A stretch of DNA of 64,000 nucleotides from Candidatus Giovannonibacteria bacterium (GTDB lineage Bacteria; Patescibacteriota; Minisyncoccia; JACPKW01; UBA11713): assembly GCA_023266875.1 (NCBI GenBank), contig JAHFOJ010000001.1, forward strand, positions 12,851 to 76,850. The letters run 5' to 3'. Position 1 is the first letter of the stretch, and each line of letters begins with the position of its first letter. This document shows, one piece after another, positions 7,732 through 64,000 of the stretch. Below the pieces are notes generated by a model. It had not been told where the DNA came from. It did no database searches and was given only the letters and a program-made list of their open reading frames with translations. Both the position numbers and the translations under genes were made by a program.

Positions 7732-7825
7732 AATTCAATTGCTCGCCCCGTACGAAACCGAAGGTTTTCGTTTGGGGTCGGTTTAAATTTCATAAATAAA
7801 TTCTAGCAATTATCTAATATTTTTT

Positions 7826-7860
7826 CCATAAAAAGGCCTTTGCGCCCGCGCGCAAAGGCC
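7826..7860 (-). terminator. Rho-independent terminator downstream of the 7893..8408 gene
   Basis: Perfect 11-bp GC-rich stem GGCCTTTGCGC/GCGCAAAGGCC with a 4-nt loop at 7835..7860. On the minus strand it is followed by a TTTTT tract (plus-strand A run 7830..7834). Confidence 0.55.
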
Positions 7861-7892
7861 ATGAAGTCTGCAACGCTTATGATCGCTATCGA

Positions 7893-8408
7893 TCAAGCTG
7901 CAGTTCTATTAGACTTAGTGAGAATTTCAGGGGCGGCGACTTCTTCCCCTAAGCTTACTTGGATGCCACGAGGACACCCAGAAATCATGAGCTCCCGCAT
8001 AATCCCAGGGCGACCGTTTAGTCCAACGAGGTTAAATGTCGAGCCGCGCACTTCGATCTTTGGGATTCCCTGCTGAAACGCCACAGTAAACTTGATTTTG
8101 TGGATGATGCGCTTGGAAAGCATATCCACATGTTTTGACGCCAAGATAGCTTGCCCTTTTCGGTCAACTTGGAGTCCGAAAGCTCCCCCCTTCTGAGCAT
8201 CGACCTCCATCACCAGCCTTGCAGGCCGGTCAATCTTAAAACATCCTCGTTCGTCAGGCGACAATTCATTGCCACCAATCGTTTTAACCATGACTCTCAG
8301 CCCCGGCTGAACATTAAACTTATTTTTCTCCATTCTCACCCCTCCTTTTGTTGTTTTTTGATTCCCGATGGAGCAATGGAACCACTGTAAAACATAATAC
8401 AATCTCAA
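7893..8408 (-). CDS. Hypothetical protein. The likely real start is the internal Met at about 8333 (MEKNKFN...)
   Basis: 171-aa ORF, divergent from efp. Non-repetitive protein-like sequence. No family recognised. Confidence 0.45.
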   Translation of the reverse strand: MRLYYVLQWFHCSIGNQKTTKGGVRMEKNKFNVQPGLRVMVKTIGGNELSPDERGCFKIDRPARLVMEVDAQKGGAFGLQVDRKGQAILASKHVDMLSKRIIHKIKFTVAFQQGIPKIEVRGSTFNLVGLNGRPGIMRELMISGCPRGIQVSLGEEVAAPEILTKSNRTAA

Positions 8409-8463
8409 TCTTCAGTCAACTTAGACTTGCGGAAAACTCAAAAATCAATATAATTCTAGCCAT

Positions 8464-9036
8464 ATGCTTTCATACACCGATTTAACTCCCGGAACGGAAT
8501 TTATACTTGCGGGCGAGCCATACGAAGTGCTCGATTATCAGTTTGTCCGGATGCAGCAAAGAAAGCCCTCCGTGCAAACCAAGATCCGTAATTTAATTAC
8601 TGGAAAAGTTGTAGCCCACACATTCCAGCCGTCTGATTCGCTAAAAGAAGCGGAAATTGAAAAAGAAACAATTAAATTCGTCTACGAACACCGCAGAGAA
8701 TATTTTTTTCAAAAACCATCCGACCCAAAAAGCCGCTTCCAGCTTTCCGAAGAATTGATTGGAGATAAAGCAAAATATCTCAAGCCAAACATAGAAGTTG
8801 TGGCTTATAAATTTAACGAAAAAGTAATCAACGTAAAATTGCCTGTAAAAATAGATTATCTGGTTAAAGAAGCTCCGCCAGGATTTAAAGGAGACACAGC
8901 CACCGGAGGCACAAAGTCTGTTACGCTCGAAAACGGGCTCCAGATCCAAGTTCCTTTGTTTATCGGCGAGGGCGATATTGTGCGGGTAAACACAGAATCT
9001 GGGATCTACACCGAACGCGCCGAAAAAGCATCATGA
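8464..9036 (+). CDS. efp: Translation elongation factor P
   Basis: 190 aa. GEPYEV, KIRNLITG and the C-terminal GDTATGGTK...VPLFI motifs of EF-P are present. The loop is non-canonical (see findings). Confidence 0.9.
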   Translation: MLSYTDLTPGTEFILAGEPYEVLDYQFVRMQQRKPSVQTKIRNLITGKVVAHTFQPSDSLKEAEIEKETIKFVYEHRREYFFQKPSDPKSRFQLSEELIGDKAKYLKPNIEVVAYKFNEKVINVKLPVKIDYLVKEAPPGFKGDTATGGTKSVTLENGLQIQVPLFIGEGDIVRVNTESGIYTERAEKAS

Positions 9037-9099
9037 TATCCACTGTTACTTTTGCTCCCCCATTTTTGTTTAAGATATAATGGGTAAAGTTTTTTCATT

Positions 9100-9795
9100 A
9101 TGAAATTAAACCACATTGCAATAATTCCTGATGGCAACCGAAGATGGGCTAAAGCGCATAGGCTCCCCACCTTTAAAGGACACGAAAAAGGCATGGCAAA
9201 TGTTGAATATATTCTGCGCGAAGCGCGAAGAATGAATATCCCATATGTGACCGCTTGGGGCTGCTCCAGAGACAACGTTACCAAAAGAAGTATCTCTGAA
9301 ATTCGATTTCTCTATAACATCTTTGAAAAAAATTTCAATAAAATGCTGACCGATGAAGAAATCCACAAGAATAAAGTGCGGGTTCGCGTAATTGGCGAGT
9401 GGCCTAAATTTTTTCCAAGCGGGCTTAGAAAATCCATACGAGCAATTGAAGAAGCCACAAAGACTTACAATAAATTTCATCTGACCTTTTTGATGGCTTA
9501 TGATGGGAAACGCGAAATGGCGGAAGCGATTCGAAGAGCGCAAAAATCTAGCTCGTCAGTTTCTGAATCAAATCTAAAAAACTATCTCTGGACTAAAGAC
9601 CTGCCGCCAGTTGATTTAGTTATCCGCTCTGGTGAATCTGGAAATTTCGCGCACTGGTCAGCAGGATTTTTAATGTGGCATACTGCAGACTCCGAATTCT
9701 ATTTCACAAAAACGACATGGCCAGCATTTTCTGCAAAAGAATTCAGAAAAGCCATCAAGCTCTACGAAAAACGCCCTCGAAACAAAGGAAAATAG
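9100..9795 (+). CDS. uppS: cis-Prenyltransferase (undecaprenyl-diphosphate synthase family)
   Basis: 231 aa. IIPDGNRRWA substrate-binding motif. C-terminal IRSGESGNF...W region resembles the UppS RTSGE...NFLLWQ region. Confidence 0.75.
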   Translation: MKLNHIAIIPDGNRRWAKAHRLPTFKGHEKGMANVEYILREARRMNIPYVTAWGCSRDNVTKRSISEIRFLYNIFEKNFNKMLTDEEIHKNKVRVRVIGEWPKFFPSGLRKSIRAIEEATKTYNKFHLTFLMAYDGKREMAEAIRRAQKSSSSVSESNLKNYLWTKDLPPVDLVIRSGESGNFAHWSAGFLMWHTADSEFYFTKTTWPAFSAKEFRKAIKLYEKRPRNKGK

Positions 9796-9800
9796 AAAAA

Positions 9801-10427
9801 CTATAAACTCTTATTCAAAAAATCAATAGTCTTTTGCCAAGCGTCTTTGGCAGCTTTTTCGTTATAACTTTCTCGATCTTCATTCGCGAATGCGTGGCCA
9901 GCGTCATCATATATATCAATCTCGTTCGTCTTTTTCAAATCTTCGAGCGCTTCGCCAAATCTTTTGACTGTCTCGCGCGGAATACTTTTATCGGCTCCGC
10001 CAAAAATTCCGAGCACTGGGGCGGAAATATTTCTTAACACCTCTTTGCTATCAGAAATCCTTGAGCCGTAATAAATTATATACGCTCCGGCTTTAATTCC
10101 GCCGATCGCCGCGAGATATGCGAAACTTCCTCCCATGCAAAATCCCCATATTGCTATATTCTCCGGCCGGATCCCCTCTCGGCCAAGTTCTACAATATCA
10201 TCCCTTATGACCAACAAGGCTTCCCCATCAACTACCGCATCTTTCATAGCCCGCGCCTCATCTACGCTCTTCGCGACTTTCCCGCCATACAAATCAGCCG
10301 CAAAAACAATATACCCTTCCCGAGCAATGCGATCTGCAGTTTTCTTAATTTGATCAATTACCCCCCAAAATTCATGGATCAAAATTATTCCTTTGCCATT
10401 TGGATTTTTGGGCTTTGAAATATACAT
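9801..10427 (-). CDS. Dienelactone hydrolase family protein
   Basis: 208 aa. Alpha/beta hydrolase with nucleophile motif GFCMGG and the DLH-like layout. Confidence 0.8.
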   Translation of the reverse strand: MYISKPKNPNGKGIILIHEFWGVIDQIKKTADRIAREGYIVFAADLYGGKVAKSVDEARAMKDAVVDGEALLVIRDDIVELGREGIRPENIAIWGFCMGGSFAYLAAIGGIKAGAYIIYYGSRISDSKEVLRNISAPVLGIFGGADKSIPRETVKRFGEALEDLKKTNEIDIYDDAGHAFANEDRESYNEKAAKDAWQKTIDFLNKSL

Positions 10428-10447
10428 CGTAAATTTATTCTAAGCTA

Positions 10448-11944
10448 TTAAAACGTTTCAAGTAAGCGAACAAGCAGGCGAACTGGAGCGCCTGCTGCTC
10501 CTTTCGCCAAAAATTCTCCGTCGATAGTCGTCATTCTTGGAGCGATATCCAAATGCACCCACGGAAAATCTTTTGCCCATTGCCACAAAAAAACCGCGGC
10601 AGTTGTCGCTCCCCCGTTACGATTCTTTCCTGTATTTGCCCAATCACCGAATGTGCCTTTGATTTCATCTTCATAATCTGTGGAAAGAGGCAAAGGCCAG
10701 ACCGGGTCATTTGTCTCCTCACCAATTTTTCTGAACCGCTCTTCCAGTTTTTTATCCGAAGTAAAAAGCCCTGTATAGCGCTGGCCTAGCGCAACCATAG
10801 CCGCCCCTGTGAGTGTCGCGACATCAACCACAAGCGAGGGATTATATTTTTTTGCGTAAGTGAGCGCATCTGCGAGAATAATTCTTCCTTCGGCGTCCGT
10901 ATTCAAAACTTCAATTGTTTTGCCTGACATCGTCCGCAGAAGATCTCCCGGGTGATAGCTCGAACCCGAAGGCATATTTTCAACGGCAGGGATTAGCCCG
11001 ACAATATTTTTCTTAAGACCTAATCGAGCGGCCGCGCGAATTGTGTGAATCACAGCCGAGCCTCCCGACATATCCATGTGCATTTCATAAATTGCCTGTT
11101 CCGGTTTCAAATTAAGCCCGCCAGTGTCAAAAGTAACGCCCTTCCCAATTAGCACAATCGGCTTTTTTGCTTTTAAGCCATTTAAATATTCTATTACGAT
11201 AAATCGCGGAGGCTCATCCGAACCGCGCGCTACTCCGAGTATTCCACCCATTCCGAGCGCCTTTATTTTTTCTTCGTCAAAAACTGAAACTTTAATTTTT
11301 GTTCCTTTGGCATCGCGTGAGGCATGTTCGGCCAAAACCTGCGGGGTCATATCTCCTCCGGGTGTATTCGCAAGTTCTCGGCACGCGTTTACTTCTTCCC
11401 CTATAATCGTCCCGCGCCTAAATCCTTCAGAAATATTTATGTCCAGCTTTAGGCATAAGCCCTCTATTTCGCGGATGCAAGCAAATCCTCCCTCCGGCGG
11501 AGTTTTATATTTGTTAAATTCAAAATTAGCCATAATCGCGTTTGCGGCCATGGCTTCATAGAAATCTCTTGTCTTTTTTGCGTTGCCCATCGGCGAGGAT
11601 AAAAACGCGAATTTATCAATTTTTTCTTTCTTTGCCGCCACGATTGCAATTCGAGTTCCAATCACTGCTTTTTTCAGTGAAAAATCTTGCTTCTTACCCA
11701 CGCCTACAAGAAAAACTTTCCGCCCTGTCTCAGGCATAACAAAAAGTTTGTATTCTTTTTCTTTCGGGACAATCCCTTTCTTTATCCTTCGGAAATATTC
11801 TTTCTCGATTTCGTCTAAATAGTTAAAGAGTGAATAAACTGTTATATCATCTCCTTCAAATATAAAGAAAACTAAAGAGATATTAGGTGTTTGAAGCTTT
11901 CTTATAAGGCTGAATTTAATGGTCATAATGTCGAAAGATAGCAA
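10448..11944 (-). CDS. pepA: Leucyl aminopeptidase (M17 family)
   Basis: 498 aa. NTDAEGRIILADALTYA M17 signature. Conserved Zn-binding region. Confidence 0.9.
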   Translation of the reverse strand: MLSFDIMTIKFSLIRKLQTPNISLVFFIFEGDDITVYSLFNYLDEIEKEYFRRIKKGIVPKEKEYKLFVMPETGRKVFLVGVGKKQDFSLKKAVIGTRIAIVAAKKEKIDKFAFLSSPMGNAKKTRDFYEAMAANAIMANFEFNKYKTPPEGGFACIREIEGLCLKLDINISEGFRRGTIIGEEVNACRELANTPGGDMTPQVLAEHASRDAKGTKIKVSVFDEEKIKALGMGGILGVARGSDEPPRFIVIEYLNGLKAKKPIVLIGKGVTFDTGGLNLKPEQAIYEMHMDMSGGSAVIHTIRAAARLGLKKNIVGLIPAVENMPSGSSYHPGDLLRTMSGKTIEVLNTDAEGRIILADALTYAKKYNPSLVVDVATLTGAAMVALGQRYTGLFTSDKKLEERFRKIGEETNDPVWPLPLSTDYEDEIKGTFGDWANTGKNRNGGATTAAVFLWQWAKDFPWVHLDIAPRMTTIDGEFLAKGAAGAPVRLLVRLLETF

Positions 11945-11989
11945 AATATTTAGATTATTGGAAGAGGATGTATAAAAACTATAAATTCA

Positions 11990-12013
11990 CTATTTCCGCG
12001 ATCGCGGAAATAG
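11990..12013 (-). terminator. 24-bp perfect palindrome CTATTTCCGCGATCGCGGAAATAG between the FKBP gene and pepA; candidate terminator or operator
   Basis: The sequence equals its own reverse complement. A 9-bp stem with a GATC loop is possible. The flank on the minus strand is T-rich (GTGAATTTATAGTTTTTATA). Confidence 0.35.
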
Positions 12014-12098
12014 AATTAAACATAAATAAACATATGATAGGCATGGGAATAATTAATTTACTCCCGCACTAACTTGTTTTATATCCACTATTTTCCCC

Positions 12099-12629
12099 TT
12101 ACAAGTTGGCGTGGGAGCTTATCTTCAGTAATTCAACTTCAAAAATCAATGTAGCGTTAGGAGGGATTGCTGATCCAGCGCCCCTCGCGCCATAACCAAG
12201 CTCCGGCGGAATTGTAAGCTTACGCATCTCGCCTACTTTCATGCCCATCATACCAACTTCCCATCCCTTAATCACCTGCCCCGCGCCTAGAGTAAATTCG
12301 AAAGGCTCACCGCCGTCGCGCGATGAATCGAATTTAGTCCCATTTTCAAGCGTGCCTACATAATGGACTGTAAGCTTGTCTCCATTCTTAGACGCCACGC
12401 CTGTTCCCTCCTTCAAGGTTTTGACAGTAACACCTATAGTTTCAACTTCCGTCTTCAAATTCGGATTTGAATTCGTAACCTGTTTATTTTCAGATGGTTT
12501 ATTAGCATTTTCCATATCTTTTTCTTCGTAATATTTTGATAAATAATAAAAACCCGCTCCTGCGATCACCAAAATTAAAAGCGACCAGATAATATTAAAA
12601 TTCGTTTCTTTATTCTTATTTTGGTCCAT
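12099..12629 (-). CDS. FKBP-type peptidyl-prolyl cis-trans isomerase with an N-terminal membrane anchor
   Basis: 176 aa. One TM helix near the N-terminus. C-terminal FKBP domain (GQVIKGWEVGMMGMKVGE...IPPNATLIFEVELL). Confidence 0.85.
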   Translation of the reverse strand: MDQNKNKETNFNIIWSLLILVIAGAGFYYLSKYYEEKDMENANKPSENKQVTNSNPNLKTEVETIGVTVKTLKEGTGVASKNGDKLTVHYVGTLENGTKFDSSRDGGEPFEFTLGAGQVIKGWEVGMMGMKVGEMRKLTIPPELGYGARGAGSAIPPNATLIFEVELLKISSHANL

Positions 12630-12761
12630 AACAAATAGTTTAAAACAAAATTAAGCTCGCTGCCACTCGATTTTTTCCCCGCTGCGCCTTTTTTCAGCCA
12701 TTACAAGCTCATCGAATATCCCATCAATCAATTGATAACCTTTTGCTTCCTCAAGCGTAAC

Positions 12762-13139
12762 TCAAGTAAATTCCACTGTCTCTTCCGGCTGAAGCTTTAT
12801 ATCGCCTGATACATAATCAGCAACACATGAAATCACAAGCGAAGGTGCACCGTCTTGATGTACAGTCGCAAGACTCGTTACATAATCTACGTTAGAAATT
12901 TCAATCCCGACTTCTTCTTTAACTTCGCGCTCAAGAGCGCGCTCAAGAACATTATACCAATAGTGCTCCGTATCCTTAGGAAGTGCTAAATAGTCATCGG
13001 TCTCAAGTCGCCCTCCTGGAACCGTCCACATTCCCGGGAAGCGTTTTTTTGTTGGAGAACGCTTGGTAATTAAATATCTTCCGTCTTTCACGACGATCGC
13101 AGTCATAACTACTTCATGTAAATATTGATTTTCTGACAT
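12762..13139 (-). CDS. Nudix hydrolase (125 aa as called). The same frame continues 36 codons beyond the TGA, down to 12652
   Basis: Nudix box GGRLETDDYL...REVKEEVGIEI. See the finding on the in-frame TGA. Confidence 0.75.
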   Translation of the reverse strand: MSENQYLHEVVMTAIVVKDGRYLITKRSPTKKRFPGMWTVPGGRLETDDYLALPKDTEHYWYNVLERALEREVKEEVGIEISNVDYVTSLATVHQDGAPSLVISCVADYVSGDIKLQPEETVEFT

Positions 13140-13152
13140 ATTGATTTATATT

Positions 13153-13368
13153 CTACATTAACCACTGCACGCGTCCAACCGTGCCGTCGGTCAGTCTAAC
13201 TTTAATACCTCGCGGGTGCGAAACACCGGGACTTAATACTTCCTTCACGATCCCCTGCTTATAATTAGTCGTGCCATAATTTTCTTTCTCGATAATCCAA
13301 ACCGCGCTCCCAGGTTTAATTTGTGAGCGAGCCGGCGGATTCGGATTATCGTGTTTATCTTGCATCAT
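13153..13368 (-). CDS. YwbE-like small protein (DUF2196 family)
   Basis: 71 aa. ...GIVKEVLSPGVSHPRGIKVRLTDGTVGRVQ resembles Bacillus YwbE. Assignment is from memory of the family. Confidence 0.5.
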   Translation of the reverse strand: MMQDKHDNPNPPARSQIKPGSAVWIIEKENYGTTNYKQGIVKEVLSPGVSHPRGIKVRLTDGTVGRVQWLM

Positions 13369-13410
13369 TTTTTATCCAAAACCTTGACTTTTCTTATCCT
13401 AATCATCTTT

Positions 13411-16017
13411 TTACTTCCCATGGCACTTTTTATATTTCTTTCCTGACCCGCAAAAACATGGATCGTTTCTGCCGAGTTTATGTCCGTCCTTTGTCTGCTT
13501 TGCGCCTGCGGCTGACAATTTAAACTCTTGGACCGGTAAGGGCGGCGCGACCGTTCTAGATTCGTTTGCGTGAAACACAAGGCTGATGAACTGCGCGCGG
13601 AGCGAGGATTCAAATTCTCGAAATAGACCTATCGCTTCATTTTTGTATTCAACAAGCGGATCACGTTGGCCATATGCACGAAGGCGGACCGATGAACGCA
13701 TGTATTCCATTGCTTCCAGATGCTCGATCCAAAGCGTGTCGTTCGCGCGGAGCAAAAGCTGGCGAATTGTCGGCAAAAAATTCTGCCCCAACTCTGTTTC
13801 TTTCTTGCTGAAAATAGAACTCGCCGCCTCTTCCAGCTTTTCAGTTATTAAATCAGCTGAAATGTTATCCGAAAGCCACGAGAGATCTACGCTTTCTCCA
13901 AAGCGTGCTTTGATATCATCCGAAAGTAATTTTATATCTTTTTCCGGGCTGGCTTCGTATATTTCAGCGATAGTTTTTATCTCTTTCGATATATAATCCT
14001 TCGAAAACTTATTAATTTCTTCATCGGCCCCAAGAAGTAGCTTGCGCCTGCGCTCATAAACCGCCGTCCTTTGCTTATTCATAACATCGTCATATTCAAG
14101 AATATGTTTTCTCGAATCAAAATTGAAACCTTCAATTTTCGCCTGCGCGGATTCAATTGCAGAAGAGACAATGCGCGCCTCCACAGGCTCGTCTTCGGGA
14201 ATGCCAAAACGCCCCATCATGTTTTTGATCCGCTCCGAGCCAAAAATTTTCATCAAATCATCTTCAAGCGACACAAAGAATTGTGTAGCGCCCGAATCCC
14301 CTTGGCGCCCGGAGCGCCCCCGAAGCTGGTCATCAATGCGGCGCGCTTCATGGCGTTCAGTACCAAGTACAAAAAGCCCACCCGCCGCTTTTACCTCCTG
14401 GGCTTCTTTTCCGTCAGGTGGATTCCCGCCCAAAAGAATATCAACTCCGCGGCCCGCCAAGTTTGTGGCAACTGTAACCGCGCCTTTTCGTCCAGCCTGC
14501 GCGATAATTTCCGCTTCGCGTTCGTGGTTTTTCGCGTTTAAAACTTCATGCTTAATTCCTTCTCGATTCAATATTTCCGAAAGGCGCTCATTTTTTTCAA
14601 TCGATACTGTTCCTACAAGCACTGACTGCCCTTTCATAGTTCGCTCTTTAATCTCCCGTGCTACGGCGGTGAATTTACCCTTCTCGGTCTGATAAACTCG
14701 GTCAGGATAGTCTTGCCTTACCATTTCGCGGTTGGTTGGAATTGTAACCACTTCAAGCCCATAAACTTTATGAAATTCCTCTGCCGAGGAAGCGGCAGTT
14801 CCTGTCATCCCAGCTAACTTTTTGTACATTCGAAAATAATTTTGAAAAGTTATTGTCGCGAGCGTCCGCGATTCTTTCTGAACTTCCACTCCTTCTTTCG
14901 CCTCAATCGCCTGATGAAGCCCGTCAGACCACCGGCGCCCGGGCATGAGACGCCCCGTAAATTCGTCAACTATTATAACCTCGCCCTTGCGCACAACATA
15001 GTCGCGGTCAAGTATAAATAAAGCTTTCGCGCGAAGCGCCTGCTCCATATGATGGACATATTTGATGCCCCGCTCGGTGTAAATATTTTGGATGCCGAGA
15101 AGTTTCTCAACCTTTTCAATCCCGGCCTCGGTAACGCTAACCGCTTTGAATTTATTATCAACAGTATAATCTTCACTCTCTTTAAGATTAATCACAACCC
15201 GTGAAAAAATCCTATAGAGTTCCCCAGACTCCACATCGGGAGCAGAAATAATTAATGGAGTTCTTGCCTCGTCAATCAAAATCGAGTCCACTTCGTCCAC
15301 AATCACAAAATTATGTCCCCGCTGTGCAATATCATTTTCAGAATAAGCCATATTGTCGCGTAAATAATCAAATCCAAATTCATTATTAGTTCCATAAGTA
15401 ATATCTGCCTCATATGCCTCACGCCGCGTTACAGGACGTAAAAATTCACGAACGACGCGAAAAGATCCCAAGATATCCCGCTCTCGGTCTTCTTTTTCAT
15501 TCGCTTCATGCTTAGGGTCGTAAAGAAAACTTTCTTCATGGTTTAAAACACCGACAGATATGCCGAGAGCGTGGTAAATTTGCCCCATCCAAACCGCATC
15601 ACGGCGGGAAAGATAATCATTGACCGTAACAATATGGACCCCTCCGGGAATTTTGCCGGACAACGTGTTTAAATAAGCGGGCAAAGTCGCAACCAGTGTT
15701 TTTCCTTCCCCTGTTTTCATCTCTGCGATCTTCCCCTCGTGAAGTACAGACCCGCCAATAAGCTGCACGTTAAAATGGCGCTGGCCAAGCGTCCGCTTTG
15801 CGGCTTCGCGTACTGCGGCAAACGCCTCAGGCAAAATATCATCTAGGGCTTCTCCTTCGCTAACGCGTCTCCTAAACTCGATGGTTTTAGCTTTCAAGTC
15901 TTCCGGCGAAAGTTTTTCAAATTCGGCTTCAAAGTTAGAAACCTTTTGGACCATCGCTCTATAGGCAGTCTTGATCCGCGCGCTTGCATCCCCAAAAATT
16001 CTCGTGATAACACTCAT
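13411..16017 (-). CDS. secA: Preprotein translocase ATPase SecA
   Basis: 868 aa. DEAD-like motor motifs. C-terminal zinc-binding tail CFCGSGKKYKKCHG. Confidence 0.95.
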   Translation of the reverse strand: MSVITRIFGDASARIKTAYRAMVQKVSNFEAEFEKLSPEDLKAKTIEFRRRVSEGEALDDILPEAFAAVREAAKRTLGQRHFNVQLIGGSVLHEGKIAEMKTGEGKTLVATLPAYLNTLSGKIPGGVHIVTVNDYLSRRDAVWMGQIYHALGISVGVLNHEESFLYDPKHEANEKEDRERDILGSFRVVREFLRPVTRREAYEADITYGTNNEFGFDYLRDNMAYSENDIAQRGHNFVIVDEVDSILIDEARTPLIISAPDVESGELYRIFSRVVINLKESEDYTVDNKFKAVSVTEAGIEKVEKLLGIQNIYTERGIKYVHHMEQALRAKALFILDRDYVVRKGEVIIVDEFTGRLMPGRRWSDGLHQAIEAKEGVEVQKESRTLATITFQNYFRMYKKLAGMTGTAASSAEEFHKVYGLEVVTIPTNREMVRQDYPDRVYQTEKGKFTAVAREIKERTMKGQSVLVGTVSIEKNERLSEILNREGIKHEVLNAKNHEREAEIIAQAGRKGAVTVATNLAGRGVDILLGGNPPDGKEAQEVKAAGGLFVLGTERHEARRIDDQLRGRSGRQGDSGATQFFVSLEDDLMKIFGSERIKNMMGRFGIPEDEPVEARIVSSAIESAQAKIEGFNFDSRKHILEYDDVMNKQRTAVYERRRKLLLGADEEINKFSKDYISKEIKTIAEIYEASPEKDIKLLSDDIKARFGESVDLSWLSDNISADLITEKLEEAASSIFSKKETELGQNFLPTIRQLLLRANDTLWIEHLEAMEYMRSSVRLRAYGQRDPLVEYKNEAIGLFREFESSLRAQFISLVFHANESRTVAPPLPVQEFKLSAAGAKQTKDGHKLGRNDPCFCGSGKKYKKCHGK

Positions 16018-57092: not shown

Positions 57093-58565
57093 ATGAATAA
57101 TAGCAAGATTCAGGATAAAATTCACCCATCCACCAAAGATTTTGGCGGGCGGGTTCATGCAATTGGCTGTGACGTGACCGAAAGACAGCTTCAAAACTCC
57201 CTTGAAAAAATTGCCGCGATCCCAAGCCTTTCATCAAAGATAGTTTGCCTGCCAGATCTCTATTTAAAAGCGCGCACAGAGGCTCCCGCGTCAATTGTCA
57301 CAGCAATAAATAACGCGATAGTGCCGACCCTTTCCGCGCCTTCACTCGGCTGTAGTATGGGCGTAATCGCGACGAATCTTACAGCAAAGGATTTAACCGA
57401 AAATACCGAGCGCGTTTTTTTTAATCACATGCAAGATGAGCTGGGTAAATATTATAACTTCTGGGACAACATCGCGGTTTGGCTTGGGCTCAAAACACGC
57501 CGGTTAAATAAGTACGACCTTTCTTTGGAAGAATTCGACGGCATCGTCAAGAGAGGGGCGAAAGCCGCAATCCAGCGTTATGGTTTTTCTGAAAAAATCC
57601 TCGAAAATATAGAATGGGGCGGATCAGTCTATTCGAATGAGGAAATTCGAAACTTGGATCTCAAAAAAATATTACCACGCTCTTCATTCACCAATGGACG
57701 TCACGATCTAGGCTACGGATTTAAAGGAAATCATTTCCTTGAGATTCATGTGATTGAAGATATTTTCGACTCAAAAACCGCTTCAGCTTGGGGGCTTTCA
57801 AAAGATCAAATTGTTATCTTCTACCACGGCGGCGGAGGCATGGTGCCATATCACATGGGGCGTTACTACGCCAATCGCATGAAAAATAATCTTAAGCAAA
57901 AATTCTTCTTAAGAATCGGAAAGTTGTTTTTTCATCTTTTTTCCATGGATGGAATAAAAAATTTCAGAGAGCGCGCGCGCTATTACTTTTTTCCCGAACT
58001 TTTTCAGGAAATTAAGGCTGATTCTATGGAAGGTATACGTTACGGGCTCGCGATTAAAGCTGCGCTCAACTACAGCTACGCTTTTAATATCGCATTAATG
58101 GCGCGGGTGCGAGATGCTCTGAAAAATACTTTCAAAGATAAGAATATTGAAATCAAACCGATATATGCTCTCGTCCATAATTCGATTATCAAAGAAAAAG
58201 TTGGGCCGCACGAGCTATTTGTACATCGCCACACATTAAATCGTGTCGAGGAAGGAAAGCCGACAATTCTTTCGGGCTTCAATAACACAATTTCTTATAT
58301 CGGTATTGGGCTAAAGCCGCCTCCAGAGACGCTCTGGTCGGCTGAACATGGCGCGGGAGAAAATATAAAACGTTTCGAGCGTGAAGGAAAATCTAGAGAA
58401 GACAGCGGCCGCGAAACTATTATTTTCAAGACAAAACCGCCCCCTGCGACGCACGTTAAACATAGAACGGCCGAGGGAGTTGATTTCGTTATGACGAAAC
58501 TTGAAGAAGCCGGATTAATGCGAAAAGTATTATCATTAAGACCGCTGGCTAGTTTTAAAGGATAA
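57093..58565 (+). CDS. Divergent RtcB-family (RNA 3'-phosphate ligase-like) protein
   Basis: 490 aa. Colinear with RtcB. PDLYLK...GCSMGVIATNLTAKDLTEN matches E. coli RtcB PDVHLGKG...GCGMNALRTALTAEDLPEN. GNHFLEIHVIEDIFD matches GNHYAEIQVVEQIFD. HGAGE matches HGAGR. Two conserved positions are substituted (Tyr for His in PDVH, Glu for Arg in HGAGR). Confidence 0.7.
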   Translation: MNNSKIQDKIHPSTKDFGGRVHAIGCDVTERQLQNSLEKIAAIPSLSSKIVCLPDLYLKARTEAPASIVTAINNAIVPTLSAPSLGCSMGVIATNLTAKDLTENTERVFFNHMQDELGKYYNFWDNIAVWLGLKTRRLNKYDLSLEEFDGIVKRGAKAAIQRYGFSEKILENIEWGGSVYSNEEIRNLDLKKILPRSSFTNGRHDLGYGFKGNHFLEIHVIEDIFDSKTASAWGLSKDQIVIFYHGGGGMVPYHMGRYYANRMKNNLKQKFFLRIGKLFFHLFSMDGIKNFRERARYYFFPELFQEIKADSMEGIRYGLAIKAALNYSYAFNIALMARVRDALKNTFKDKNIEIKPIYALVHNSIIKEKVGPHELFVHRHTLNRVEEGKPTILSGFNNTISYIGIGLKPPPETLWSAEHGAGENIKRFEREGKSREDSGRETIIFKTKPPPATHVKHRTAEGVDFVMTKLEEAGLMRKVLSLRPLASFKG

Positions 58566-58568
58566 AAT

Positions 58569-59408
58569 ATGGATTCAACCAAAGAACTTCGCCAAAAACT
58601 ACAAGCATTTAAATACGAAGGACGCGAACGCCCGTGGGGTTATCGCGCGCTTCAGCGAGGACCATCGATTTATATTACACGTTTCGCAATCAAGCACGAT
58701 CTCACCCCGAATCAGATTACACTTGCGGGAATTATCTGCGGAATAATCGGCAGTTTTCTTGTATTTTTCGCCTTGCCATTTAAAATAGCGGGCGCGATTT
58801 TGCTATATGCCAATATTCTCTCCGATAAAGTTGATGGTGAAACTGCCCGCTTCCGCATCCAAGAAAAAAGAGGAAAAGTTTATCTGCGAGGAGTATACTT
58901 AGACGAACTTAATCATCTCATAATTCCTCCCCTCTTTTTGCTCGGAGTAACGCTTGGAATTATTTCAAATTTCCCCTATAACACGTCCATCCTTGCCTTC
59001 ACAGGCCTATTTGCTACGCTCTCCCTCCCTTTCCTTCGAGTTTATCATTCGCTCGCTCCGCAGATTTTCATGAAAAAATATATAAAACATCCTGAATTAT
59101 TCTCTCCATTGCCTCATGCGAACGAGCCTGATCCAATATTCCAGATCAAAAAGAAATATTCTCCTCTAAAGAAATTTATTCAAGCAATTCATCAATTGCA
59201 AGATTTTTTTATAATAGTTTTCTTATTATTTCTCTCATTTTTGGGTGAGATAACAATGCCGATGTTCCGTCCGCATTTGCTTTCAGGCCTGCTTGTAGTA
59301 ATCCTTGGGATTATCCTGCCGCTTATCGTCATCGAAAATTCAATTAAAGGATTCTTTCAAATCGAACACCGCGTGCGGGACATTAAAGATAAATACTGGC
59401 AGAAATAG
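58569..59408 (+). CDS. CDP-alcohol phosphatidyltransferase-family-like integral membrane protein
   Basis: 279 aa, about 6 TM helices. Motif SDKVDGETARF...G...YLDELNH approximates the D-G-x2-A-R...G-x3-D-x3-D signature, with the last Asp replaced. The gene starts 4 nt after the RtcB-like stop. Confidence 0.5.
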   Translation: MDSTKELRQKLQAFKYEGRERPWGYRALQRGPSIYITRFAIKHDLTPNQITLAGIICGIIGSFLVFFALPFKIAGAILLYANILSDKVDGETARFRIQEKRGKVYLRGVYLDELNHLIIPPLFLLGVTLGIISNFPYNTSILAFTGLFATLSLPFLRVYHSLAPQIFMKKYIKHPELFSPLPHANEPDPIFQIKKKYSPLKKFIQAIHQLQDFFIIVFLLFLSFLGEITMPMFRPHLLSGLLVVILGIILPLIVIENSIKGFFQIEHRVRDIKDKYWQK

Positions 59409-59412
59409 AAAG

Positions 59413-60492
59413 TTAATTTTCTGTGTTGAAAAGTGAAATAAACTCGCGAACCTCTCTCTCTTTCCCGAATTTCTCGGCGAATTCAAGGCCAGCTTTGCGA
59501 AATTTATCGTAAAGTTCTTCGTCCGCCAAAAGTTTTCTTATTTTCTTGCCGAATTCGGCGACATCTCCGGGCTTTATTAAAAACTCTTCGAAGCCGGCTG
59601 GTGCAATATCTCTAACTCCGCCAACATCGGACGCGACAAACGGCGTTCCAGCGGCCATCGCCTCCAGAAGAGAATGCGGCACGCCTTCCTCGCGAGATGG
59701 CATTAAAAAGGCATCTGCCGCTTGATAATAAGCGACCATATCGCGATTCGGAACAGGCCCGATAACTTTGACAGGTATATGCGAACCAAGCGCTTCTGCC
59801 TCAAGTGATTCGCGGTACGGACCATCGCCGACAACAAACAAAACAGCATCAGAATCTCGAATGTAAGATATGATCGGCACCAAAAGATCCGCGCCTTTTC
59901 TCTCTGATAGGTGGTGAACAAAAAGAATCAGTTTTGTAGATCCTTTAATTCCAAACCAGCTTTTTGTGGCCTCTTTGCTTTCCTTTGGCAAAAAACGTCC
60001 GGCATCCACCCAATTTGAAACAATCTTCCATTTACGAACACGAAAATGCTTTACATATTCTTCAGCAAGACTCTTAGACCCTGTAACTAAAGTTGTGTGG
60101 CGCAAAATAAATCTAAAACACCGCTCCTCAAAAAAACCGCGGCGAAAAAGCCAAGGCATGCCGCAATTCCAATAAGAAACTCTCAAGCGGGCAAGCCAGC
60201 CTGCGAGCGCTCCATAATATGAGTAGTGAACATAAATATTATTGTATCCTTCTTTTTTCAGCCGCCTCAAAATAAAATAAAGTTCAAAAAAACGCGCAAT
60301 TCCTTTTTTGTGTTTCTGGACCAGAAATGGAACGTTAAGATTAATCGGACTTACAGCGTTTTCTATCACCGCATAAATATCAATCGCGGAACTTGCGGCG
60401 CGGATCAGCTCATAATTATAAAACAAATGAGTATCAGTTTTGTCGTCATACTTAGGCAAAATATAAATTACCTTTTCAGACATGCCTTCCAT
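59413..60492 (-). CDS. GT4 glycosyltransferase
   Basis: 359 aa. ...PSREEGVPHSLLEAMAAGTPFVASDVGGVRDI (E-x7-E). Confidence 0.85.
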   Translation of the reverse strand: MEGMSEKVIYILPKYDDKTDTHLFYNYELIRAASSAIDIYAVIENAVSPINLNVPFLVQKHKKGIARFFELYFILRRLKKEGYNNIYVHYSYYGALAGWLARLRVSYWNCGMPWLFRRGFFEERCFRFILRHTTLVTGSKSLAEEYVKHFRVRKWKIVSNWVDAGRFLPKESKEATKSWFGIKGSTKLILFVHHLSERKGADLLVPIISYIRDSDAVLFVVGDGPYRESLEAEALGSHIPVKVIGPVPNRDMVAYYQAADAFLMPSREEGVPHSLLEAMAAGTPFVASDVGGVRDIAPAGFEEFLIKPGDVAEFGKKIRKLLADEELYDKFRKAGLEFAEKFGKEREVREFISLFNTEN

Positions 60493-61631
60493 GATTCAAC
60501 TAATTTATTCCTATAATCATCAAATGAAACATAAGGCCGGGGAGTATTTTTTGCTCCTTCGGAAAGTTTTTTCAAGAAAGTTTTGTCATTTTTAATTTTA
60601 GTTAATGATCCAACAAGCGCTGATCGATCCCCAACCGGAAAAATAATCCCGTTTTGCCCGTCTTTAACAACTTCATGGGCGAGCCCAACGTCCGTCATTA
60701 AGACAGGAAGCCTCGATCCAAGCGCTTCAAGCGCAGCAAGGCTATATCCTTCGTAATTCGATGTTATTAATAGGCAATCCGCGCTCTGATAGTAATCAGC
60801 AAGATCTTCGGCTGATTTCCATCCTTCAAAATAAACATTCCCCTCAAGCCCATATTTTGCTTCATCTTCAAGGCGCGTCCGAAGCAACCCATCGCCTACA
60901 ATTACCAGCAAAATTTCCGGTCCCTTATTTACAATTTCACGAAACGCGTCAAGCGCGAGCGATATATTTTTTTCATGAGTTAGGCGAGAAGCCATTAAAA
61001 CATATAACTCATATCCCGGGTATTTCTTTTTAATATCCAACCATCCTTTCGGCTTACTTGCATCCGAATAAATCGGCAAGACACGGATAGTTGGCAGTTT
61101 ATAGTTTATAGTTTTTAGAATGGAGTTTTTGATCCGTTCGGATACAACCCGAATTCCATCAGCTCGCGGAATCAGGAAACTAGCTAACCAAATCCTGATT
61201 TTGTTAAAAAAAGATCCTCTAAAATAGTAAGGGCTAAAAATATCCGCATGAATTTGCATCTGCCACGGAACGCTAAATTTCTTTGAAAGTTTCCAAGCTA
61301 AAAACGAATGCTCGATTTCCTGCGCGGTAATCAAATCAAATTTCTCGCGCAATAAAACTGCCCTAGCTTTTTTATATCCCTTCCAAAATCGAAATAATTT
61401 CCCATCTTTCGCATCAATTTTTATAATTTCAAGTTTGTCCAAAACCTTTGCATATTCCCGCATCCGCAAAAAAACCGCGCTCCCCGCCTCATCCACCCAT
61501 GGATCCGATGAAAACATTAGAACTTTCATCCCGTTAGAAATCCGACCCGCTGTAGGCGCGTTGGTAGAAATCTCCGGTTTCTTATTTCTAACGGGATTCA
61601 TACAATTTCTTTTAAATAACATTGTTCGCAA
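60468..61631 (-). CDS. GT4 glycosyltransferase
   Basis: 387 aa. ...SNYEGYSLAALEALGSRLPVLMTDVG... Confidence 0.8.
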   Translation of the reverse strand: MRTMLFKRNCMNPVRNKKPEISTNAPTAGRISNGMKVLMFSSDPWVDEAGSAVFLRMREYAKVLDKLEIIKIDAKDGKLFRFWKGYKKARAVLLREKFDLITAQEIEHSFLAWKLSKKFSVPWQMQIHADIFSPYYFRGSFFNKIRIWLASFLIPRADGIRVVSERIKNSILKTINYKLPTIRVLPIYSDASKPKGWLDIKKKYPGYELYVLMASRLTHEKNISLALDAFREIVNKGPEILLVIVGDGLLRTRLEDEAKYGLEGNVYFEGWKSAEDLADYYQSADCLLITSNYEGYSLAALEALGSRLPVLMTDVGLAHEVVKDGQNGIIFPVGDRSALVGSLTKIKNDKTFLKKLSEGAKNTPRPYVSFDDYRNKLVESWKACLKR

Positions 61632-63334
61632 TAAACAATCCGTGGATCATCCGGCCGATAAACAGCTTCAAATTTAACTCCGCATTTAGGGCAAACTCTC
61701 TCAAAAAATTCCAAAACTATTGAGCCAAATTTATCCCTTTTTTCTTTGAGGCGTGCGCTAAAATGTTCAAGCGGCAAAGGCGTATTAAATTTACGATGCA
61801 AATCCAGCTCTGCTTGGGTATATCGAAATTTTTTATTATTTATTTTATCAAAAATTATTCTATCTAAAATATCGTTTTTTACGTTTTTAATATCAGCTGG
61901 CACATTCTCCGCATTAATTATATCTCCCTTCACTTCATCAAGCTCTTCTTTAATTTCTTCAAATCTATATCCAAACCGCCGCGCATTCTCAAAATCATCA
62001 TAACCTTTATACGATGAGGCAATCGAAAGATTATACGGAAAAGGTGAGGAATCTGGAGGAAAAAACTCTCCATATTCTCCATCCTTAAACATCTTAGTTT
62101 TTATTTCATCAACCTTCCGCCAATAATCGCCCTCTGTATACTGCTTGTTAAAAATACAAAATGATTTATTACTAAGCGCAATACAGCCAAAAACATCATG
62201 GCAATTTTTGCAAAAATCAGAGTATTCCGCATCACGACAGCCTGCCATCATAGTAGAAAACAATGTTTTGTAGCAATTATAAGCGCCCGCACATTCATAG
62301 GAGAATTCAGTTTCTACTGCACTTACATCGTACGAATCACGAATCTTCGTCGAACCAATGGAATATGCCGTTCGTTCTGAATCCATAACAAAATAACAAT
62401 TGAAACAATCTCTCGAGTTTATGATATAGTCTCCGGAACTATTCACCAATTTCTCATTATGGTGAGGCTTGTGAATCGCGTTCCGGGATATTTCGTAAAA
62501 TTTCTTTTTGTATTCAGCTAGAACATTACGATCCCCTAAATTAATTTCCGACAACTTGCTCTGATATTCGTCTTTCGTTAACTGCTCTCCAAAGAAAACA
62601 TACTTCTTATGGCGCAAATTTATGCCCCCGAAACAATTCGTGCAATTCCGGCAATCATATAGAAAATAACTGTCCAGACAGTTTTTTGAAAATTCCACAA
62701 AATAACAATTATAAAGTTCACTGGACTCAAAACATTCATAACAAATAGTGGAGTCAAATGCATCGAAACAATCAACACAATCTTTAGAATTTAAACAAAT
62801 CGTATAGTGGCAATTTTCGCTCTTGATCGAGTTAAAAACTAGATAGCAATCTTTCAAATGTGTTGAATCGTTAGTAAATTCACTATTTATGCTTGTATTG
62901 TCAACATAAAGATTGGGACGCGGCACAACTAGTTGAAGATTCTTAAACTGGTCAAAAAAGCTTCTAGATAAGTCACAATCGCGTTCATATTCTATGGCAT
63001 CCCATTCACCTCCAAACCAATGTTGGTGATCATAAATTTTATAAGGCGTATTTGGCGGATACTGCATTAAAATTTTTTTGCCCGAAAAAGACGAGATGCC
63101 GTAAAAAAGATTAAAAGAATTCCAAACAGCAAGAAATGAACGCATTCGTTCTTTCGGACTCAAAGTCGGAAGAGGCACGCGTATTTTTTTATAAAACGCG
63201 ACATCTTCAGGTCTAACATAAAATTTCTCGCTAGAAAACCGGCACGTTCTCCACTGTCCTCCCTTCTCGTCGAACTCAAGTTTCGAGAAATATTCATCCA
63301 ACGCCTTATCAAATTGTGGTGTTTTTGATGTCAT
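61598..63334 (-). CDS. Large cysteine-rich protein of unknown function (578 aa). Has an approximately 11-residue Cys repeat core and a C-terminal Zn-ribbon-like CPKCG...YCEQCYLKEIV
   Basis: Long ORF with 35 Cys. Repeats such as NCHYTICLNSKDCVDCFDAFDSTICYECFESSELYNCYFVEFSKNCLDSYFLYDCRNCTNCFGG. No signal peptide. No family recognised. Confidence 0.6.
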   Translation of the reverse strand: MTSKTPQFDKALDEYFSKLEFDEKGGQWRTCRFSSEKFYVRPEDVAFYKKIRVPLPTLSPKERMRSFLAVWNSFNLFYGISSFSGKKILMQYPPNTPYKIYDHQHWFGGEWDAIEYERDCDLSRSFFDQFKNLQLVVPRPNLYVDNTSINSEFTNDSTHLKDCYLVFNSIKSENCHYTICLNSKDCVDCFDAFDSTICYECFESSELYNCYFVEFSKNCLDSYFLYDCRNCTNCFGGINLRHKKYVFFGEQLTKDEYQSKLSEINLGDRNVLAEYKKKFYEISRNAIHKPHHNEKLVNSSGDYIINSRDCFNCYFVMDSERTAYSIGSTKIRDSYDVSAVETEFSYECAGAYNCYKTLFSTMMAGCRDAEYSDFCKNCHDVFGCIALSNKSFCIFNKQYTEGDYWRKVDEIKTKMFKDGEYGEFFPPDSSPFPYNLSIASSYKGYDDFENARRFGYRFEEIKEELDEVKGDIINAENVPADIKNVKNDILDRIIFDKINNKKFRYTQAELDLHRKFNTPLPLEHFSARLKEKRDKFGSIVLEFFERVCPKCGVKFEAVYRPDDPRIVYCEQCYLKEIV

Positions 63335-63351
63335 AAATCTAAATTCAAACT

Positions 63352-63433
63352 GCTATGATATATCATAGCGATAAGGTTTTCCTTCTAAACTACTTTCGTG
63401 GTTCATAATCTATTACTGCGATTAATCGCAGTA
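63352..63433. repeat. Two perfect palindromes in the 100-nt spacer between the Cys-rich paralogs: GCTATGATATATCATAGC (63352..63369) and TACTGCGATTAATCGCAGTA (63414..63433)
   Basis: Each equals its own reverse complement (18 bp and 20 bp). The second starts 1 nt after the stop codon of the upstream paralog. Confidence 0.6.
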
Positions 63434-63434
63434 T

Positions 63435-64000
63435 TTAAACTATTTCCTTTAAATAACAACTCTCACAATAGACCTTTAATTTTTTGGCGGGATCGTAAGA
63501 AGAATACATTTCTTGCCCGCAATTTGAGCATGGGTATTTCCATAAATAATACGGGTTCTTTTTTTTAAATCGTTCAAAAAGACGCACCTGGTAGTGATTT
63601 GTTGGCAACGGAATTTTATATTTTCTATAAAAAGTTAATTCCCATTCCGTAATCTGAAACAATCTTCCGGTCTCGGTACAGATAATCGCTTTTTTCAAGA
63701 TATCATTTTGGACATCGGCGATATTGTCGGGCAGTTCTTCGCCTTTTATTTTTTCGAGGTCAGAATGCATTATAGGCTCAATCGCGCGCCATCTAGCTTT
63801 AAATGTTTTTGCAGATGTTTCATTAAGGGGAACAATCATTTGCGCATAAGTATCATTGTAATAAAAGAATGAGTGCTCGAGGGGCAGAAACTCTCCATAC
63901 ATACCATCCGCAAGCATTTTAGTTTTCATTTCATCGATTTTTTTCCAATATTCGTTTTCAGTATAAGCTTTATTGAAAATGTAATACTCTTTATTTTTTA
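63435..64000 (-). CDS. Paralog of the Cys-rich protein; runs off the window end, so N-terminus is missing
   Basis: The ORF-track 164-aa call starts at an internal Met. The same frame stays open to 64000 and reads ...NKAYTENEYWKKIDEMKTKMLADGMYGEF, parallel to the paralog's NKQYTEGDYWRKVDEIKTKMFKDGEYGEF. Both end in CYLKEIV. Confidence 0.6.
   Translation of the reverse strand, partial: KNKEYYIFNKAYTENEYWKKIDEMKTKMLADGMYGEFLPLEHSFFYYNDTYAQMIVPLNETSAKTFKARWRAIEPIMHSDLEKIKGEELPDNIADVQNDILKKAIICTETGRLFQITEWELTFYRKYKIPLPTNHYQVRLFERFKKKNPYYLWKYPCSNCGQEMYSSYDPAKKLKVYCESCYLKEIV

Follow-up and report, generated by a model that had tools for sequence, protein, structure and literature searches.

The 64,000-nucleotide (nt) stretch of Candidatus Giovannonibacteria contig JAHFOJ010000001.1 analysed here (the window) ends with two adjacent reverse-strand genes, designated open reading frame (ORF) A and ORF B, the second of which leaves the window at position 64000. 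A preliminary description, based on the letters of the sequence, had presented them as tandem paralogs encoding a 578-amino-acid (aa) and a partial cysteine-rich protein. The tandem, same-strand arrangement proved correct, with intact reading frames and 40% identity over 194 residues (BLASTP, E 2e-39), and a scan of the full 64 kb with a family profile recovered these two copies only. The two genes are not a local pair; wider searches showed them to be one edge of a Patescibacteria-wide multigene family forming arrays of up to 11 copies. The genes are as follows.

61598..63334, minus strand: ORF A, uninterrupted, 578 aa; a member of the Z-S-S-Z family described below, from a subfamily with decayed zinc sites.
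63435..64000, minus strand, continuing past the window end: ORF B, with the C-terminal 187 aa visible.

A protein identical to the 578-aa ORF A product is known from an 81-kb contig. The same protein is also encoded by a 37.5-kb contig of a second (ENA) assembly, where the paralog upstream of it has a length of 490 aa or more, so the reading frames do not look like assembly artefacts, and the interruption that the preliminary description had considered a possible outcome of re-sequencing was not encountered. The shared C-terminal blocks pointed out earlier, KMFKDGEYGEFFP / KMLADGMYGEFLP and YCEQCYLKEIV / YCESCYLKEIV, are present in the two proteins. ORF A contained no hydrophobic or membrane segment and no signal peptide, its highest 19-residue Kyte-Doolittle mean being 0.85, in agreement with the earlier statement on signal peptides.

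Comparison of ORF A with itself revealed two duplicated modules. A Z module of ~80 residues occurs at residues 31-109 and again at 496-576 (hhalign, 99.6%, E 1.6e-24), and an S module of ~110 residues occurs at ~155-264 and again at ~302-411 (hhalign, 99.9%, E 2.4e-31). We named this architecture Z-S-S-Z, and it very probably represents zinc-finger modules flanking two central solenoid modules. The parts of ORF A are listed below; here and in what follows, conservation and Cys counts were taken from a census of 248 family members.

63263..63334, minus strand: residues 1-24, an N-terminal helix present only in the ORF A ortholog group, where it replaces the first zinc knuckle.
62885..63004, minus strand: L1, residues 111-150, a conserved helical linker into the solenoid (W..DP..Y, FF.QF, VP.P).
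62540..62884, minus strand: S1, residues 151-265, with the 12-residue repeat, a Cys-rich stretch containing C228-x2-C231-x2-C234, and a capping helix.
62450..62539, minus strand: H, residues 266-295, a helical hairpin joining S1 and S2 (DSSP helix at 269-284).
62099..62449, minus strand: S2, residues 296-412, the homologue of S1, ending with FGC..L.NK.FCIFNKQY and a helix.
61859..62098, minus strand: L2, residues 413-492, a linker with GEYGEFFP...PYN, the most conserved motif of the family.
61619..61693, minus strand: the intact zinc site C548-x2-C551-x17-C569-x2-C572, its Cys conserved at 94-96%.

Alignment of 15 paralogs gave the canonical Z module as C-x2-C...F-x-I-x3-[DE]-x2-F-Y-x-K...V-P-x-P-T-x-C-P-x-C-R-x2-R-R...C-D-L-C-G-K...Y-C-x2-C-W, a sequence with two four-Cys sites in succession; the module recurs at the C-terminus. 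The duplicated motif [FY]-[RK]-K-x-x-[VIT]-P-L-P, noticed earlier near both ends of ORF A (FYKK..VPLP and LHRK..TPLP), is real and forms the core of this module. The C-terminal zinc ribbon of the preliminary description was likewise found as a CxxC-x17-CxxC site, but a single ribbon understates the family, since as many as four CxxC...CxxC sites occur in canonical members, with two per terminus. Only C31 and the last site are kept in ORF A, which has lost three of the four sites, and the first C-terminal site has likewise been lost in ORF B. The number of CxxC pairs per N-terminal module varied among the members (four in 70, two in 141 and none in 27 of the 248), which points to terminal sites that are structural zinc sites, dispensed with in some lineages. 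Residues 1-24 had a mean conservation of 0.74 in orthologs compared with 0.08 family-wide, and a helix was placed at residues 6-17 in both structural models. The alignments show ORF A as a degenerate member, its ortholog group having lost three zinc sites and gained an N-terminal helix.

The Cys repeat reported earlier in the centre of the protein is also genuine, with a period of 12 residues instead of approximately 11. Profile autocorrelation peaked at lag 12 in both S copies (the duplicate being residues 296-392), with sub-lags of 3, 6, and 9, and the lag-12 peak was taken as the true repeat period. Inspection of the 12-mer consensus by eye showed a charged residue, Asn or Asp, and an aromatic residue in that order. 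Each S copy closes with FGC..L.NK.Y.I.NKQY..EEY followed by a helix, and residues 413-445 of L2 had the highest mean conservation of all regions (0.63). Two AlphaFold2 models of ORF A were obtained with pLDDT values of 86.2 and 91.5, the latter built from 146 diverse sequences and having a pTM of 0.90; the modelled centre consisted of four-residue strands every six residues with bridges every three.

The solenoid Cys of ORF A lie at positions 163, 175, 180, 186, 189, 198, 201, 210, 219, 228, 231, and 234. Among the central Cys positions of the family, only C163, C219, C228/231/234/237, C375, C384, and C393 were at least 76% conserved, with C228, C231, C234, and C237 at the end of S1 reaching 80-96%, and C384 and C393 of S2 reaching 97% and 88%, respectively. 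The remaining solenoid Cys were mostly 35-70% conserved and were replaced mainly by Ser, but also by Leu or Val. Because of this exchange, the metal-stabilised solenoid of the preliminary description is unsupported; most of the central Cys look like small inward-facing residues of the predicted solenoid and not like metal ligands. The same positions bear on a possible role of the proteins as metal stores, metal carriers, or Fe-S proteins, with ligands supplied by the stretch of Cys at every third residue and by the CxxCxxCxxC motif that closes S1. The strong conservation of the four S1 Cys, the inward-facing Cys or Ser at every third residue from 186 to 237, and a CutA1 gene inside a Jorgensenbacteria array would suit such a role, but most solenoid Cys exchange freely with Ser, Leu, and Val, and the fourth Cys of the motif is Gly at position 237 of ORF A and Ser in 18% of the members. 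In addition, no Fer4 or metallothionein match was obtained for ORF A, ORF B, or 15 diverse members, and AlphaFold2 gave regular short strands in this region without metal. We consider metal storage or Fe-S binding highly improbable.

Searches of Pfam, NCBIfam, PADLOC, and PDB assigned no family to the body of the protein, and the inability of the preliminary description to place it stands. The Pfam, NCBIfam, PADLOC, and PHROGs scans brought up nothing beyond sub-threshold zinc fingers and phrog_15341. No catalytic domain was detected in 15 diverse members using Pfam and NCBIfam, PADLOC gave 0 matches for four diverse members, and sequence and profile searches of PDB with the full protein and with the S module found no relative. 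Foldseek comparison of the AlphaFold models, which had been proposed as a check at the outset, also assigned no family, with nothing significant against BFVD and nothing at E ≤0.001 against PDB. The literature consulted contained no description of the family or of its link to orphan coupling-protein homologues; papers on Gracilibacteria hypervariable genes and on a new Patescibacteria pilus were checked and proved unrelated to the family.

For the zinc-binding part, two known finger types were informative. In its spacing, the CxxC-x17-CxxC finger of PF23477 (zf_Tbcl_2) and TIGR04272 is identical to the C-terminal sites of the two proteins, and the respective scores were 20.9 and 19 bits for ORF A and 24.4 and 22 bits for ORF B, all under the curated cut-offs (27 and 36 bits), while some ORF A orthologs passed the precomputed PF23477 test. 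The finger accounts for only ~5% of the ORF A protein, however, and here it is the second half of an ~80-residue two-site module with an FY.K..P.P helix-loop, a module that neither model covers. Small Methanosarcina mazei CxxC-x17-CxxC proteins bind zinc, as measured by inductively coupled plasma mass spectrometry (PMC12704099). The LIM domains of CRP1 and CRP2 (PDB 1CTL, 1B8T) likewise pack a pair of successive Cys4-type zinc sites into a single compact module, and the C..CGK....YC..CY half of Z aligned to the second CRP finger with E values of 0.003-0.01. The LIM profile PF00412 reached only 14.2 bits against a cut-off of 22.9 bits, covering profile positions 28-57, and the Z module differs from it by a helix insert of ~22 residues and by its spacing. 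LIM domains are eukaryotic protein-interaction modules.

For the solenoid, Foldseek searches of PDB with both models retrieved almost nothing but left-handed beta-helix proteins (LpxD, GlmU, LpxA, PglD, and gamma-carbonic anhydrase), with a best E value of 4e-3, probability ≤0.18, TM ≤0.12, and rmsd ~17 Å. The likeness lies in the short strands occurring about every six residues. A left-handed beta-helix coil has 18 residues, whereas the period here is 12; the solenoid of the family is duplicated and flanked by zinc fingers, and no catalytic or zinc-binding histidine is conserved, the 42 positions conserved at ≥90% including no histidine at all. No Hexapep match was found at E ≤1 for ORF A and ORF B or at E ≤0.1 for 15 paralogs. 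Given the 12-residue period and the lack of Hexapep and of a conserved histidine, the solenoid is locally like a left-handed beta-helix without being a member of that fold family. The beetle antifreeze protein TmAFP is a 12-residue Cys-rich beta-helix with i/i+6 disulfide pairs. It resembles the family in its 12-residue repeat, regular Cys, and tight solenoid, but the Cys of the family are spaced i/i+3, the proteins are cytoplasmic and lack a signal peptide, and Foldseek returned no match of this kind. Of the two possibilities raised earlier, a new zinc-binding scaffold or a new enzyme family, the scaffold remains a fair description, whereas no catalytic motif or conserved histidine was found for an enzyme.

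A word-index search yielded 3,133 homologues, and all names given were 'hypothetical', with Giovannoni-, Jorgensen-, Kaiser-, and Sungbacteria among the Patescibacteria that they came from. The best 120 were mostly 541-608 aa long, with one of 503 aa. A profile search of 1.84 billion cluster representatives (50% clustering) matched 4,584 at E ≤1e-3 and 1,915 at E ≤1e-30. In a genome scan at one genome per species, the best 80 loci all belonged to Patescibacteria, including Paceibacterota, Peregrinibacteria, Peribacteria, Gracilibacteria, and Abawacabacteria; weaker matches beyond these 80 may include members outside the phylum.

Gene organization was analysed in 83 loci, each of ~22 kb or less and together holding 281 family copies. 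At least two copies were found in 60 of the loci, at least five in 19, and at least nine in five, and 277 of the 281 copies lay on the majority strand of their own locus. L022 and L041 contained 11 copies each, L023 and L024 nine or 10, and L003 six, and the Jorgensenbacteria locus L002 contained nine in full and a tenth truncated where the locus ends. A CutA1 gene (L002:5763-6068), encoding a divalent-cation tolerance protein, was located in the middle of the latter array, as a single case. Copies in the same locus shared a median of 40% and at most 68% pairwise identity, and for 195 of 219 copies the nearest relative sat in another locus; ORF A orthologs were 46-78% identical, compared with 30-34% for the other copies in the same arrays. 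The low identity within loci and the closer relatives across loci indicate long-retained, functionally distinct paralogs. Recent expansion and antigenic variation were ruled out, as no pair within a locus was more than 68% identical.

In two loci from different samples (L003:9752-17749 and L082:11791-19132), one and the same set of housekeeping genes, HisRS-MreB-MreC-(unknown)-PBP2-GreA-AspRS, came after the array, which shows that the arrays hold stable chromosomal positions. An APH-type kinase gene separated the array from the HisRS-MreB block in L003. Patescibacteria genomes are ~1 Mb in size, yet many spend 10-20 kb on up to eleven copies, and the retention of old copies in such streamlined genomes argues for an important function.

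When all 1,104 ORFs from outside the family in these 83 loci were clustered, in line with the neighbour profiling suggested in the preliminary description, a single large cluster and only one strongly recurrent neighbour emerged, a TraD/VirD4-like P-loop ATPase with 38 ORFs in 28 of the loci. The median gap between its gene and the closest family gene was 342 nt, and the two were on the same strand in 35 of 38 cases, with typical orders of FFFFA and AFFFFFFoA (F, family gene; A, ATPase; o, other ORF). The ATPase matched TrwB_AAD_bind, T4SS-DNA_transf, TraG-D_C, and DUF87 in Pfam and the TraD and VirD4 models in NCBIfam, the latter with scores far under the equivalog cut-offs. Three forms were distinguished. 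The first, found in Paceibacterota including the Giovannonibacteria locus L025, which is syntenic with the window, has 620-780 aa, an Arg/Gly/Pro-rich tail, and a zf_Tbcl_2/TIGR04272 finger scoring above the cut-offs; the second has ~485 aa and no finger; and the third, found in Peribacteria and Gracilibacteria directly downstream of the arrays, has ~750 aa with a 330-residue N-terminal extension. The extension of the Peribacteria ATPases was considered as a possible relative of the family itself, and the idea was rejected, as no match was obtained even at E 10.

The extension was homologous to a 450-aa protein with one N-terminal membrane helix (L009:2244-3593 and L081:6766-8109), for which no Pfam match was found. 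In both arrays, a form-2 ATPase is encoded a few genes downstream of this protein. As a possible third component, the protein could anchor the motor in the membrane. Among the ATPases themselves, a hydrophobic segment past the threshold was present in only four of 34 cluster ORFs, two of which lacked Walker A.

The ATPase matches models of the type IV coupling proteins (T4CPs) TraD, VirD4, and TrwB and forms an operon-like unit with the arrays, but it differs from T4CPs in that most copies lack the N-terminal membrane domain, that no relaxase or type IV secretion system (T4SS) gene was seen in the loci, and that no T4SS cluster was among the recurrent neighbours. In a 2025 survey, 5,713 VirD4-like homologues were reported from 2,918 Patescibacteria genomes, of which only 148 were near virB4, and exaptation of these homologues was described as not excludable by its authors (PMC12102498). 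Taking ~2 homologues per genome from these counts and a genome of ~1 Mb, an ATPase would be expected in ~4% of 22-kb stretches as a rough estimate of our own, compared with 34% observed.

The coupling-protein likeness raised the possibility that the arrays encode secreted cargo, that is, T4SS substrates or effectors passed by the adjacent VirD4-like protein to a host bacterium. Bartonella, with its tandem Bep effector genes beside virD4, provides the model. The adjacency of the ATPase in 28 of 83 loci and its T4CP matches fit this explanation, the 450-aa membrane-helix partner in L009 and L081 would make a membrane-tethered motor possible, and the Patescibacteria T4SS is essential in one cultured species (PMC12857230), with no substrate of it named in the literature consulted. 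On the other hand, most ATPases have no membrane segment, no T4SS cluster recurs at the arrays, and the homologues are rarely near virB4 and a t4cp homologue was dispensable for epibiotic growth of a cultured Saccharibacterium (PMC12102498). The paralogs are, moreover, old, constant in length, and conserved as orthologs, unlike fast-evolving modular effectors, and zinc-locked domains and solenoids make poor substrates for unfolding. Secretion as cargo appears unlikely to us.

Binding of nucleic acid was considered as a second role, in which Z modules on a rigid rod would bind DNA or RNA, for chromosome bridging or organization or for RNA handling, and the FtsK/TraD-type ATPase would translocate the same substrate. 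The Z modules are basic and Arg-rich (CR..RR..RN), with net charges of +0 to +10, whereas S and L2 are mildly acidic; the ATPase family includes DNA translocases, and the Paceibacterota form has the Arg/Gly/Pro-rich tail. A role in transcription was hypothesized for the small CxxC-x17-CxxC proteins of M. mazei (PMC12704099). However, no recognized nucleic-acid-binding domain was found, the overall pI is near neutral (5.7-8.2), and ten diverged paralogs are ill-suited to a generic DNA binder. The nearest solved relatives of the finger, the LIM domains, mediate protein-protein contacts. We are doubtful of this role and regard it as improbable. DNA mimicry was also rejected, since the proteins are not strongly acidic.

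Arrays of diversified paralogs beside a P-loop NTPase also recall anti-phage or other conflict systems, with the paralogs as sensors and the ATPase as signalling or effector partner. The ATPase matched nSTAND NTPase models faintly, and phrog_15341, a phage family with unannotated function, shares the Cys-rich repeat, matching ORF A residues 163-235 (~62630-62848) with an E value of 1.6e-10. Against this, there was no PADLOC match and no nuclease, toxin, or other effector domain, and the paralogs are old and ortholog-conserved, with HisRS-MreB-MreC-PBP2 synteny in two genomes. The family was also essentially absent from 2.9 million viral contigs (IMG/VR; one marginal fragment), and tblastn with the solenoid region found nothing in 50,697 GenBank phage records. 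A defence function is very unlikely on these grounds.

The second recurrent neighbour was a TrmB-type regulator, present in 15 loci, mostly on the opposite strand and interspersed among the family genes in Peribacteria arrays. These TrmB-family helix-turn-helix regulators are ~260 aa long and were found in L031 (about 7321-15075), L026, L044, and 12 further loci, with four in L031, one of them cut by the locus end. Their interspersed positions suggest that individual paralogs are separately regulated.

On its other side, ORF A borders a glycosyltransferase block in the window; features at this border and in the spacer ahead of ORF A are as follows.

61598..61601, minus strand: ATGA, in which the stop codon of ORF A (TGA) and the start of the downstream GT4 glycosyltransferase gene overlap.
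60468-61601, minus strand: the GT4 glycosyltransferase gene, downstream of ORF A.
63335..63434, minus strand: a 100-nt spacer that separates ORF B from ORF A and contains the palindromes GCGATTAATCGC and GCTATGATATATCATAGC.

The GCGATTAATCGC palindrome lies directly past the ORF B stop codon, and the GCTATGATATATCATAGC palindrome lies ~20 nt ahead of the start codon of ORF A, where it partly coincides with a weak promoter-like match; a promoter and terminator scan gave a result no better than that for shuffled sequence. Neither the window nor seven array loci yielded a riboswitch or any other leader RNA in Rfam searches. Within the glycosyltransferase block, on the opposite strand, an RtcB RNA-ligase homologue (57093-58565, plus strand; Pfam label) and an ORF with a faint Pfam match to CDP-alcohol phosphatidyltransferase (58569-59408, plus strand) were observed.

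The array-then-GT4 order of the window was shared with L025, where the orthologs of ORF A, ORF B, and GT4 were 68%, 52%, and 56% identical, respectively, and the ORF B ortholog was 592 aa long as a stop-to-stop reading frame. Gene order in L025 was a partial family copy, the finger-bearing ATPase, four genes, three family copies, and the glycosyltransferases, and by comparison the window contig probably continues in the same way past position 64000. The ATGA overlap suggests that the last array member is translationally coupled to the glycan operon. Glycosyltransferases were not recurrent neighbours of the arrays: apart from the window and L025, its relative from Giovannonibacteria, none of the loci with annotated neighbours showed this linkage. 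The preliminary view that the two genes terminate a glycan locus was therefore right about their position, while the arrangement itself is a lineage-specific accident, and a role of the family in a glycan pathway was rejected for the same reason.

These neighbours, together with the Foldseek results, bear on the remaining alternative, that the paralogs are left-handed-beta-helix-like transferases or ligand binders acting on sugars or envelope precursors, with one specificity per paralog. The top Foldseek matches were all left-handed beta-helix acyltransferases or gamma-carbonic anhydrase, the ORF A stop overlaps the GT4 start in an order kept in L025, and Pfam names TrmB, whose relatives occur at 15 loci, a sugar-specific transcriptional regulator. 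The structural matches were insignificant, however, no Hexapep or other catalytic Pfam match and no conserved histidine were found, the period of 12 departs from the 18-residue coil, and the glycosyltransferase linkage does not extend to other annotated loci. An enzymatic role is quite unlikely in our judgement.

We tentatively favour a different explanation, judging it plausible though somewhat short of probable, in which these cytoplasmic proteins form a non-enzymatic, zinc-stabilized set of scaffolds or adaptors working with the VirD4/TraD-like motor. As predicted from sequence and gene order, the proteins would be rigid scaffolds or adaptors held by zinc, with the basic Z modules docking a common partner, either protein or nucleic acid, and the diverged solenoid surfaces providing paralog-specific recognition. 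The set would act with the co-encoded hexameric-type TraD/VirD4/TrwB-like ATPase, as its adaptors or its clients. The Paceibacterota ATPase shares the CxxC-x17-CxxC finger, and in some genomes the ATPase has a single-pass membrane protein as its partner. In the lineage of the window, the last array member would also be translationally coupled to the glycosyltransferase operon.

Several observations weigh against the adaptor explanation. Its functional part is drawn from gene adjacency alone, 55 of the 83 loci had no ATPase within 10 kb, and none was found in the 64-kb window, though the array leaves the window end. The zinc-finger matches of ORF A were under the curated cut-offs, and the ATPases of Peribacteria and Gracilibacteria do not share the finger, which weakens the idea of common docking. 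The conserved GEYGEFFP..PYN and NKQY motifs could mark an unrecognized active site, and the TrmB regulators in Peribacteria arrays and the GT4 link would also suit substrate-specific enzymes or ligand-binding proteins.

While treble-clef fingers and a beta-solenoid are each familiar, the protein, its arrays, and the partnership with the ATPase fit no known system. A more far-reaching proposal, which we hold to be rather unlikely, is that the arrays, the orphan VirD4/TraD-like ATPase, and, in some genomes, the membrane partner constitute an undescribed, Patescibacteria-specific machine, with the ATPase as an exapted coupling protein and each of the 2 to 11 or more paralogs as a dedicated client or adaptor; in its boldest form, the paralogs would be the missing protein cargo of the essential T4SS, delivered into host bacteria.

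The duplicated 12-residue-repeat solenoid with decaying double zinc fingers had no significant PDB match by Foldseek, and its fingers offer a natural series in which zinc sites are stepwise replaced by non-metal packing. For Patescibacteria, the arrays provide a genomic partner for VirD4-like ATPases located far from secretion systems, which the 2025 survey left unexplained (PMC12102498). The function of this motor, and possibly the cargo of the essential Patescibacteria type IV system, may now be directly approachable.

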